A stretch of 64,000 nt of DNA from NCBI GenBank assembly GCA_050951805.1, contig JBMNJT010000002.1:1472001-1536000 (forward strand), read 5' to 3'. Made by a program: the position numbers and the translations under genes. The stretch's first letter is position 1; the number at the start of each line of letters is the position of its first letter. The DNA comes from Bacillota bacterium (GTDB lineage Bacteria; Bacillota; DTU025). This document shows positions 17,251-17,667 of this stretch, piece by piece. The notes under the pieces were generated by a model, which had not been told where the DNA came from, did not search any database, and saw nothing but the letters and a program-made list of their open reading frames with translations.

Positions 17251-17612
17251 AAAAAAACCCCTGACAGCCAAGTGTCAGGGGCGAATTATATCCGCGGTAC
17301 CACCCTGTTTGTTTCACGCACAAGCATCTCATGCCGACGAGGCGATGGATAATAAAATGGTGGAGCTGAAGGGGATCGAACCCTCGACCTCTTGAATGCC
17401 ATTCAAGCGCTCTCCCAGCTGAGCTACAGCCCCACGCAAACTTGAGCGTGTCTTTTGGGCATATAACGCTGCCACCCGTTGCAGACTACAATCTCTTTCC
17501 ACTTCACCTGCACCGCTCCAAGGCGAGTTCAGAGCTGCCCGCACACCGGGTTCCACCCACCCCCGGCTCTCTTTGAGCGGCACAGCACTTATTGCTCCTC
17601 TTCATTGCGTTT
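17251..17612 (-). promoter_or_regulatory. T-box riboswitch (Leu, specifier CUC) upstream of leuS
   Basis: Stem I with GA motif (GCAATGAAGAGG...CCTTGGAGC), AGAGAG box, GGTGGAA loop and GAA-CTC-G specifier (17525-17527); Stem II and IIA/B; T-box AGGGTGGTACCGCG (17293-17306); terminator CCCCTGACA...TGTCAGGGG-T7. Confidence 0.92.
17358..17433 (-). tRNA. tRNA-Ala(GGC), nested within the T-box leader
   Basis: GGGGCTGTAGCTCAGCTGGGAGAGCGCTTGAATGGCATTCAAGAGGTCGAGGGTTCGATCCCCTTCAGCTCCACCA; 76 nt; G3:U70 pair; encoded CCA. Confidence 0.96.
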
Positions 17613-17638
17613 GCATTTCAAAATATCAAGCAGCTATG

Positions 17639-17667
17639 ATTATACCTGCCCCGTTTCGGTAAGTCAA
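17639..17667 (-). promoter_or_regulatory. Sigma-A promoter of the T-box/tRNA/leuS transcript
   Basis: TTGACT-17nt-TATAAT. Confidence 0.85.

Follow-up and report, generated by a model that had tools for sequence, protein, structure and literature searches.

Can a single transcript sense one transfer RNA (tRNA) and also be the precursor of another? T-boxes are the textbook case of RNA sensing RNA, and the question is raised by the leader of leuS, the gene for leucyl-tRNA synthetase (LeuRS), in a 64,000-nucleotide stretch of a Bacillota bacterium (lineage DTU025; assembly GCA_050951805.1, contig JBMNJT010000002.1, positions 1,472,001 to 1,536,000), a stretch that we call the window. An intact tRNA-Ala(GGC) gene lies inside this leader, where one transcript would thus sense tRNA-Leu and be a tRNA-Ala precursor. 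An earlier note, made from the letters of the sequence, had proposed that the tRNA forms the loop of Stem III and that the leader doubles as a pre-tRNA. Our analysis favours, with a probability of roughly 0.7, a canonical leucine-responsive transcriptional T-box of leuS whose Stem III loop is the genome's only tRNA-Ala(GGC) gene and whose leader is also pre-tRNA-Ala. This reading draws on the anatomy of the leader, its conservation and covariation, its single-promoter layout and the presence of the nucleases in the genome. The leader (region 17251-17667) is read on the minus strand, and its elements, followed by leuS and the predicted ligand, are, in transcript order:

17667-17639, minus strand: sigma-70-type promoter, TTGACT-17-TATAAT, with the -35 element at 17667-17662, the -10 element at 17644-17639 and a spacer of 17 nucleotides (nt)
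17614-17274, minus strand: full-length match to the Rfam T-box covariance model RF00230 (model positions 1-219)
17614-17515, minus strand: Stem I, with the specifier loop and the AGAGA / GGUGNRA distal platform motifs (Rfam alignment and sequence)
17514-17462, minus strand: Stem II and the Stem IIA/B pseudoknot region, ending in CGUUA (RF00230 model positions about 103-148)
17456-17451 and 17450-17440, minus strand: purine-rich lead-in, then the 5' arm of Stem III (fold, covariation)
17433-17358, minus strand: tRNA-Ala(GGC) gene, 76 nt (ARAGORN; Rfam tRNA, 64 bits)
17357-17326, minus strand: U/A-rich 3' trailer of the tRNA, with a small hairpin at 17350-17326 (fold)
17325-17315 and 17314-17307, minus strand: 3' arm of Stem III, then an A-rich linker (fold pairing, covariation)
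17306-17251, minus strand: expression platform with T-box sequence, antiterminator, terminator and U-tract (Rfam alignment, terminator scan)
ATG at 17222 to stop at 14706, minus strand: leuS, leucyl-tRNA synthetase, 838 amino acids (open reading frame, Pfam)
41989-41905, minus strand: tRNA-Leu(GAG), the predicted ligand (ARAGORN, sequence)

The promoter matches the consensus at 11 of 12 positions, and the promoter scan found no other minus-strand promoter-like site within 17000-18000 and, in the window, no second leuS promoter between terminator and ATG; transcription would start near 17632. Despite the inserted tRNA, the leader scores 101.5 bits against RF00230 (gathering score 93). In Stem I, the specifier loop reads GAA-CUC-G (17530-17524), with the Leu codon CUC at 17527-17525 and a purine after it, and the distal motifs that form the platform for the tRNA elbow, AGAGA and GGUGGGUGGAA, are aligned by Rfam. 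The T-box sequence AGGGUGGUACCGCG occupies 17306-17293, including the UGGU bulge (17302-17299), and is followed by a terminator hairpin of 10 pairs (17282-17257) with its U-tract at 17256-17251; the 5' strand of this terminator overlaps the 3' strand of the antiterminator in the Rfam alignment, so that the two hairpins are mutually exclusive. The leuS product carries the LeuRS editing domain (Pfam tRNA-synt_1_2, 1.9e-75) together with tRNA-synt_1 and Anticodon_1, and its start codon is preceded by the Shine-Dalgarno sequence AAGGAGG (17236-17230). The anticodon GAG of tRNA-Leu(GAG) fits the CUC specifier, and its discriminator A73 (before CCA) fits the U of UGGU. Judged by its sequence, the leader has every feature that assigns a leader to RF00230, in the transcriptional class. 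Promoter, Stem I with its specifier, Stem II and IIA/B, tRNA, T-box sequence, terminator and leuS are therefore all present as the earlier note had described them, while a promoter between the tRNA and leuS, which the note had named as counter-evidence, was sought by the scan of the window and not found. The assembly itself gave no sign of artefact when the suspicion of a chimera was checked, as 14 DNA runs from 8 studies contain 98-100% of the sampled words of 17100-17750.

The same arrangement recurs widely. We searched one genome per species (185,579 species) with a generic pattern consisting of any T-arm, CCA, 11-71 nt and a T-box sequence, and obtained at least 120 matching stretches in public genomes. 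Among the 80 matches listed, 74 have a tRNA-Ala(GGC) at the match, another 3 lie at a locus edge where ARAGORN made no call, and 71 have a LeuS homologue within 1.2 kb downstream. The nested tRNAs other than tRNA-Ala among these 80 (a tRNA-Ser in L109 and tRNA-Glu in L171 and L172) have no Stem I upstream, look like chance and were set aside. In the sample of the window's phylum the pattern was found in 52 of 401 genomes (33 of 277 genera) and its reversed control in 0 of 401, which, together with the recurrence in at least 120 stretches, is more than chance would give. Eleven of 61 related genomes gave matches extending from Stem I into or across the tRNA. Among 19 relative loci that we retrieved, 14 show the order Stem I, tRNA-Ala(GGC), T-box sequence, terminator, leuS; of the remainder, 1 ends just after the tRNA, and in 2 the tRNA is located elsewhere, either under its own promoter or as a member of a tRNA cluster.

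Across all collected loci there are 141 tRNA-Ala(GGC) genes, and a T-box sequence follows within 170 nt in 127; these 127 nested loci reduce to 118 unique flank pairs and 61 distinct tRNA sequences, from which 73 diverse carriers were aligned for covariation. In this alignment the named structure has 94.7% of its cells paired, compared with 77.3% in column shuffles and 40-51% when partners are slid by 1-3 columns. Of the 30 related leaders inspected, one (L213) is unclear and the rest share the specifier context; a T-run follows the T-box sequence in 108 of the 118 loci. Conservation and covariation in related leuS leaders, proposed by the note as a check, were thus borne out: the layout recurs, and both the Stem III arms and the tRNA helices covary. 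The Rfam cut-off was reached by 8 of 14 and 4 of 14 nested relatives in two sets and missed by 16 of 28, so that automated catalogues probably under-report such leaders or list each as two items, a stray tRNA and an orphan terminator.

By record label, the 118 unique carriers comprise 50 Bacillota, 21 Chloroflexota, 11 Atribacterota, 5 Armatimonadota, 4 Candidatus (Ca.) Sysuimicrobiota, 2 Actinomycetota, 1 Thermomicrobiota, 1 Caldatribacteriota, 8 unplaced records, 1 Pseudomonadota (a metagenome-assembled genome, possibly mis-binned) and a further 14 relatives of the window organism. In a FastTree of 188 LeuS N-terminal fragments, used solely for the clustering of carriers by phylum, the carriers cluster largely by phylum, and the carrier label changes 20 times on the tree compared with 62 in shuffles (0/500 as low), a figure of 20 that is inflated because several rows scored as not nested are edge-cut loci (for example L003, L013, L122, L144 and L157). 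The tRNA sequence varies by lineage, as with the GC-rich anticodon stem in Armatimonadota records, and such lineage-specific sequences argue for long residence and against the recent spread of one cassette. In one family of the window's order (L012, L014, L017, L020 and L193) a very divergent LeuS stands behind the same nested leader, with about 49% identity to the window's enzyme, HVGH in place of HMGH and a branch of 0.87, which suggests enzyme replacement or fast evolution with the leader retained.

The nested gene has the features of a working tRNA. It combines G3:U70 and A73 with an encoded CCA and a U at position -1, and it is the sole tRNA-Ala(GGC) in the whole-genome list of 47 tRNA genes for this 8-contig genome, whose other alanine tRNAs read CGC and UGC. 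BLAST and ARAGORN likewise found the nested copy to be the only GGC copy in 5 of 5 other near-complete carrier genomes, which answers in the affirmative the question of uniqueness that the note had raised. Over the 73 aligned carriers, pairing stands at 98-100% in the four tRNA helices, where double changes are numerous, and G3:U70 occurs in 73/73; ACCA is encoded in 118/118 loci. With its cloverleaf, G3:U70, A73 and alanine anticodon, the nested gene is, to judge from these features, a bacterial elongator tRNA-Ala.

Where, then, does the tRNA sit with respect to the switch? A thermodynamic fold of 17470-17300 pairs the Stem III arms 17450-17440 and 17325-17315 through 10 pairs around one U-U mismatch, and this helix encloses the acceptor stem of the tRNA plus the small hairpin 17350-17326, a lineage-specific addition to the 3' spacer that the earlier description had lacked. 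A purine run lies 5' of the helix and AA lies 3' of it, matching the RRRNG-Stem III-AA motif given for T-boxes in PMC7778990. The element is directly 5' of the antiterminator, as Stem III should be, and is atypical in its loop, which holds a whole tRNA. In the alignment of 73 sequences, in which some lineages are misaligned, the arms are 76% paired and all 6 pairs vary on both sides. An alignment-free comparison gave a mean of -10.75 kcal/mol for the pairing of a locus's own 5' and 3' flanks and -6.75 kcal/mol for pairing with the flanks of other loci; measured against the non-cognate pairings, the cognate one ranked in the top 5% at 46 of 118 loci and in the top 25% at 82. Moreover, in Tepidanaerobacter, Caloramator and other Bacillota whose leuS T-box is without the tRNA, a simple small Stem III hairpin takes exactly this place. 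A short stretch of 13-25 nt separates CCA from the T-box sequence in 86 of 118 loci; among loci the 3' spacer ranges from 11 to 118 nt. That the tRNA makes up the distal part of Stem III is thus supported by the covarying arms, by the better pairing of cognate flanks and by the plain hairpin of tRNA-less relatives. The alternative hairpin that the note had drawn between the same 5' arm and GCGUG, including G1 of the tRNA, does exist in the window; as it is found in only 6 of 118 related loci, it is lineage-specific and was rejected as a conserved feature.

The position of promoters points to a shared transcript. In 102 of 118 loci a sigma-70-like site is found ahead of Stem I, 170-300 nt from the tRNA, compared with 7 of 118 in which a promoter-like site lies directly before the tRNA (-10 element ending 3-60 nt upstream; the observed sites are 34-57 nt upstream), and the scan of the window found no such site there. 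On the RNA side, six metatranscriptome runs contain 34-69% of the words, and contigs cover the leader in 4 of 4 RNA runs compared, from 4 studies; being contigs, these data speak to presence and contiguity and carry no strand, ends or level. One metatranscriptome contig of 877 nt (X15, 17303-18100) bridges both tRNA junctions, and others cover 17407-17623, 17450-17645 and 17445-18100. Judged by their loose ends, the RNA contigs that cover the tRNA belong to other organisms as well. Uncovered stretches, such as those around the terminator in X17 and X19, were rejected as a sign of processing given that contigs provide no ends, and a joint 16826>17292 in a single contig (X18) was dismissed as probably foreign, having only 20 letters on one side. 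The proposal that the leader doubles as a pre-tRNA gains indirect support from the sole GGC copy in 6 of 6 genomes, the promoter layout (102 versus 7 of 118 loci) and X15.

Bacterial ribonuclease P (RNase P) is favoured by a U at -1, and precursors that encode CCA are matured by an endonucleolytic cut and exonucleolytic finishing rather than by RNase Z. In the window, the 7-nt leader of the tRNA has U as its last base (-1), and a U-rich trailer comes after ACCA; among related loci the base before G1 is U in 104 of 118, itself preceded by a purine (109/118) and a pyrimidine (98/118), and the trailer is U/A-rich. The genome encodes a type-A RNase P RNA (334.6 bits), RNase J (631 bits) and RNase Y (799 bits). 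With RNase P present and the substrate features in place (a single-stranded leader and a free RCCA), cleavage is predicted.

How could the two functions share one RNA? We infer that co-transcription is the only source of this tRNA, and likewise the cleavages, their timing and the dependence on tRNA-Leu. One promoter would drive the whole unit, and Stem I would capture tRNA-Leu(GAG) through the CUC specifier during transcription, while tRNA-Ala would fold as a closed L-shaped domain with its ends clamped by the Stem III arms. Because the ends of a tRNA meet in the acceptor stem and are here clamped by covarying arms, the base of Stem III, the A-rich linker and the antiterminator would all keep their normal geometry despite the insert. 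The 3' end of uncharged tRNA-Leu would then stabilise the antiterminator, and with charged tRNA-Leu the terminator would form. Each transcript, whether read through or terminated (presumably the majority), would also be pre-tRNA-Ala, from which RNase P on the 5' side and an endonuclease with trimming on the 3' side would free the tRNA; these cuts would detach Stem I and Stem II from the expression platform once the decision has been made, and the read-through leuS messenger RNA (mRNA) would gain a new 5' end just upstream of the terminator hairpin.

Several observations weigh against this account. In 7 loci, most of them from Ktedonobacterales and Chloroflexia, the promoter-like site just upstream of the tRNA could supply it separately. 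X15 also spans the upstream gene and the promoter, so that DNA carry-over or read-through from rsfS is possible. The window leader folds no better than its shuffles (z -0.64 and -1.40), and the flank duplex is weak against composition shuffles (median z -1.4, below -2 in 33 of 118 loci); as these thermodynamic and shuffle statistics are weak, we rely on the comparison of cognate with non-cognate flanks and on the pair counts instead. A same-genus genome (G001, 97% complete, in 190 contigs) gave no leader match. A tRNA that encodes CCA and stands before a stable terminator hairpin is assumed to require an endonucleolytic cut in the trailer, and cleavage by RNase P before the antiterminator forms would abolish sensing.

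A rival reading makes the tRNA a working part of the switch, with cleavage by RNase P or at the 3' end as a built-in timer or second input. A cut before the decision would uncouple the tRNA-Leu bound to Stem I from the antiterminator and force termination, a cut after it would remove the sensor and leave leuS mRNA with a protective 5' hairpin, and LeuRS synthesis would follow both the charging of tRNA-Leu and the tRNA-processing capacity of the cell. The exclusivity of the arrangement fits, as tRNA-Ala(GGC) alone was found in Leu T-boxes (74 among the 80 matches listed, with 3 that have no ARAGORN call and 3 other tRNAs that are chance-like), as does the retention of the layout in several phyla. 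So does the short distance from CCA to the T-box sequence in 86 of 118 loci, with which the decision could come soon after the tRNA. Yet many leuS T-boxes lack the tRNA, the one of Bacillus subtilis works without it, and a single ancient insertion, locked in as the only GGC gene, explains exclusivity and retention equally well. Leader cleavage that alters the fate of an mRNA does have precedents in the thrS T-box and pbuE, as recounted in PMC7913692. Set side by side, these points leave a timer unlikely. The broader proposition, that the nested tRNA is integral to the switch, that its maturation by RNase P is programmed and that the module is an ancient composite predating the split of Bacillota, Chloroflexota, Atribacterota and Armatimonadota, is itself rather unlikely; if true, tRNA-processing capacity would be a second input to LeuRS synthesis.

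The remaining alternatives deny the link between tRNA and switch altogether. Were the tRNA expressed from its own promoter inside the leader, the nesting would be mere gene placement. This is conceivable in the 7 of 118 loci that have a site 34-57 nt ahead of the tRNA, and non-consensus promoters would escape the scan; however, an internal promoter was rejected for the window by that scan, 111 of 118 loci are without one, the 25-35 nt between Stem IIA/B and the tRNA are occupied by the covarying Stem III arm, and such a promoter would also yield leuS transcripts that bypass Stem I, all of which makes the idea quite improbable. The T-box could instead be a decayed relic, the unit being a tRNA-Ala gene that uses a former T-box promoter and terminator, with leuS expressed by read-through or otherwise. 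Loci without a T-box give this some colour, namely Ca. Caldatribacterium SIUC1, with promoter, tRNA-Ala(GGC), terminator and leuS, and an Omnitrophota genome with tRNA-Ala(GGC) 40 nt before leuS. The window T-box, by contrast, is complete in its domains and above the Rfam cut-off, the specifier, the UGGU bulge, the terminator and a covarying Stem III are retained across phyla, and the window offers no alternative leuS promoter between terminator and ATG, so that decay is highly improbable. As for an assembly chimera or chance juxtaposition, the genome is in 8 contigs and assemblies frequently break at tRNA genes (as those of L004 and L015 do at this tRNA), but the agreement of the 14 DNA runs, the same order of parts in 127 loci and the empty reversed-pattern control (0/401) make it barely credible. 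The favoured reading, a leucine-responsive T-box that carries its genome's only tRNA-Ala(GGC) gene as the loop of Stem III, is the likeliest of these.

Apart from this weighing, six of the Ktedonobacterales and Chloroflexia loci (L103, L142, L145, L151, L159 and L219) share a conserved TTGTCG-17-TA(T/C)AAT site that overlaps Stem IIA/B and lies 34-49 nt upstream of the nested tRNA. This lineage may have a real internal promoter there, or conserved T-box motifs may produce the site as a side effect.

The surroundings of the leader are also of note. The gene order runs from an HD-domain (YqeK-like) gene and rsfS through the T-box with tRNA-Ala to leuS, an intron remnant and a ComEA-like gene; the neighbours annotated in the window lie at 17797-18811 and 12805-13521, both on the minus strand. 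Many related leaders are likewise preceded by the C-terminal motif of the upstream RsfS-like gene, so that this neighbourhood, too, is conserved. The remnant is a match to group II intron D1-D4 RNA (65.8 bits) at 14387-14555 on the minus strand, about 150 nt downstream of the leuS stop, and in one relative (L005, 1961-2259, plus strand) a group II intron (145.6 and 66 bits) separates leuS from the terminator of the nested T-box. Sites immediately behind intrinsic terminators are homing targets of some bacterial group II introns, and such homing would fit both positions.

Other genes may come between leader and leuS. An ilvE-like gene, resembling those for branched-chain aminotransferases, is found there in Armatimonadota and Sysuimicrobiota (L121, L136, L132 and L147), and a gene for an AMP-dependent ligase-like protein of about 550 amino acids in Desulfotruncus, Desulfofundulus and Pelotomaculum (L108, L115 and L156), both names being given from recognised motifs alone. 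In some carriers among the Chloroflexota, the region of the T-box promoter is immediately preceded by one more tRNA gene (L124, 3266-3338; L103, 2783-2855), the 3' end of which, in L124, reads like another tRNA-Ala.

Linkage of tRNA genes to T-boxes or to leuS also takes other forms. Outside the window, the same genome has a second, non-nested tRNA-T-box linkage (G000:C2:971236-971619; L238, 337-720), in which a tRNA-Pro(UGG) gene with its own promoter is followed after 26 nt, with no visible terminator between, by a weak T-box match, which at 63 bits falls short of the cut-off and includes a T-box sequence and a terminator; its specifier may be UUC. The tRNA-Ala(GGC) genes directly upstream of leuS without a T-box, in Caldatribacterium SIUC1 and the Omnitrophota genome mentioned above (L061, 1020-1200; L092, 1089-1200), mean that the linkage of tRNA-Ala with leuS reaches beyond T-box carriers; in a second Omnitrophota genome (L083, 187-260) tRNA-Ala(GGC) is on the opposite strand.

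If the favoured reading holds, the leader is a natural experiment in co-transcriptional folding, in which the two halves of a switch must cooperate across an autonomous fold of 76 nt, probably before RNase P separates them. It indicates that the Stem III loop can accommodate a large structured insert, which would be useful for T-box engineering, and it suggests an RNase P-defined route to the kind of leader cleavage that is known to control the stability of T-box mRNAs. The presence of the arrangement in several phyla with host-specific tRNA sequences bears on the age and spread of T-boxes. Cultured carriers (Syntrophomonas wolfei, S. palmitatica, Pelotomaculum propionicicum, Desulfofundulus, Desulfotruncus, Desulfitispora and Halonatronum) make direct tests possible, and a specialist in T-boxes or RNase P would probably be surprised by the layout. 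A tRNA or tRNA-like fold serves as a processing signal within a longer transcript, and so sets the end of an adjacent RNA, in the Escherichia coli thrU-tyrU-glyT-thrT-tufB operon, in mitochondrial polycistrons and in MALAT1-mascRNA; none of these is known to set the tRNA inside a regulatory RNA with two halves that must work together across it, or to involve a tRNA-sensing switch.

A full-text literature search yielded no description of a T-box leader that encloses a tRNA gene, though a prior mention in large comparative T-box surveys is possible, and the available portions of the TBDB paper (PMC7778990) and of a 2020 review (PMC7583486) do not mention one. With canonical leuS T-boxes (RF00230; L021, L026, L029, L031, L046 and L048) the window leader shares the Leu specifier of Stem I, Stem II and IIA/B, a Stem III flanked by purines and AA, the UGGN bulge, the terminator/antiterminator pair and leuS downstream. 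It differs from them in that the loop of Stem III is a whole tRNA-Ala(GGC) with spacers instead of a short loop, in having at least 100 nt extra between sensor and expression platform, and in that the leader would itself be a pre-tRNA. According to PMC7913692, the B. subtilis thrS T-box leader is cut upstream of its terminator, which stabilises the mRNA (Condon, Putzer and Grunberg-Manago 1996). The cuts predicted here would likewise leave a terminator hairpin at the 5' end of a read-through aminoacyl-tRNA synthetase mRNA; unlike the cut in thrS, which is attributed to a general mRNA nuclease at an unstructured site, they would be set by the embedded tRNA and would release it. The same source reports that RNase P cleaves the pbuE adenine riboswitch (Seif and Altman 2008) and that RNase III cleaves the Staphylococcus aureus met T-box, and the window leader is predicted to resemble both in that a structure-specific RNase would separate leader from mRNA and affect stability. 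Those two leaders contain no gene of their own, whereas the RNase P substrate in the window would be a true pre-tRNA, carried by a T-box with an embedded, functional-looking tRNA gene that is kept across several phyla.

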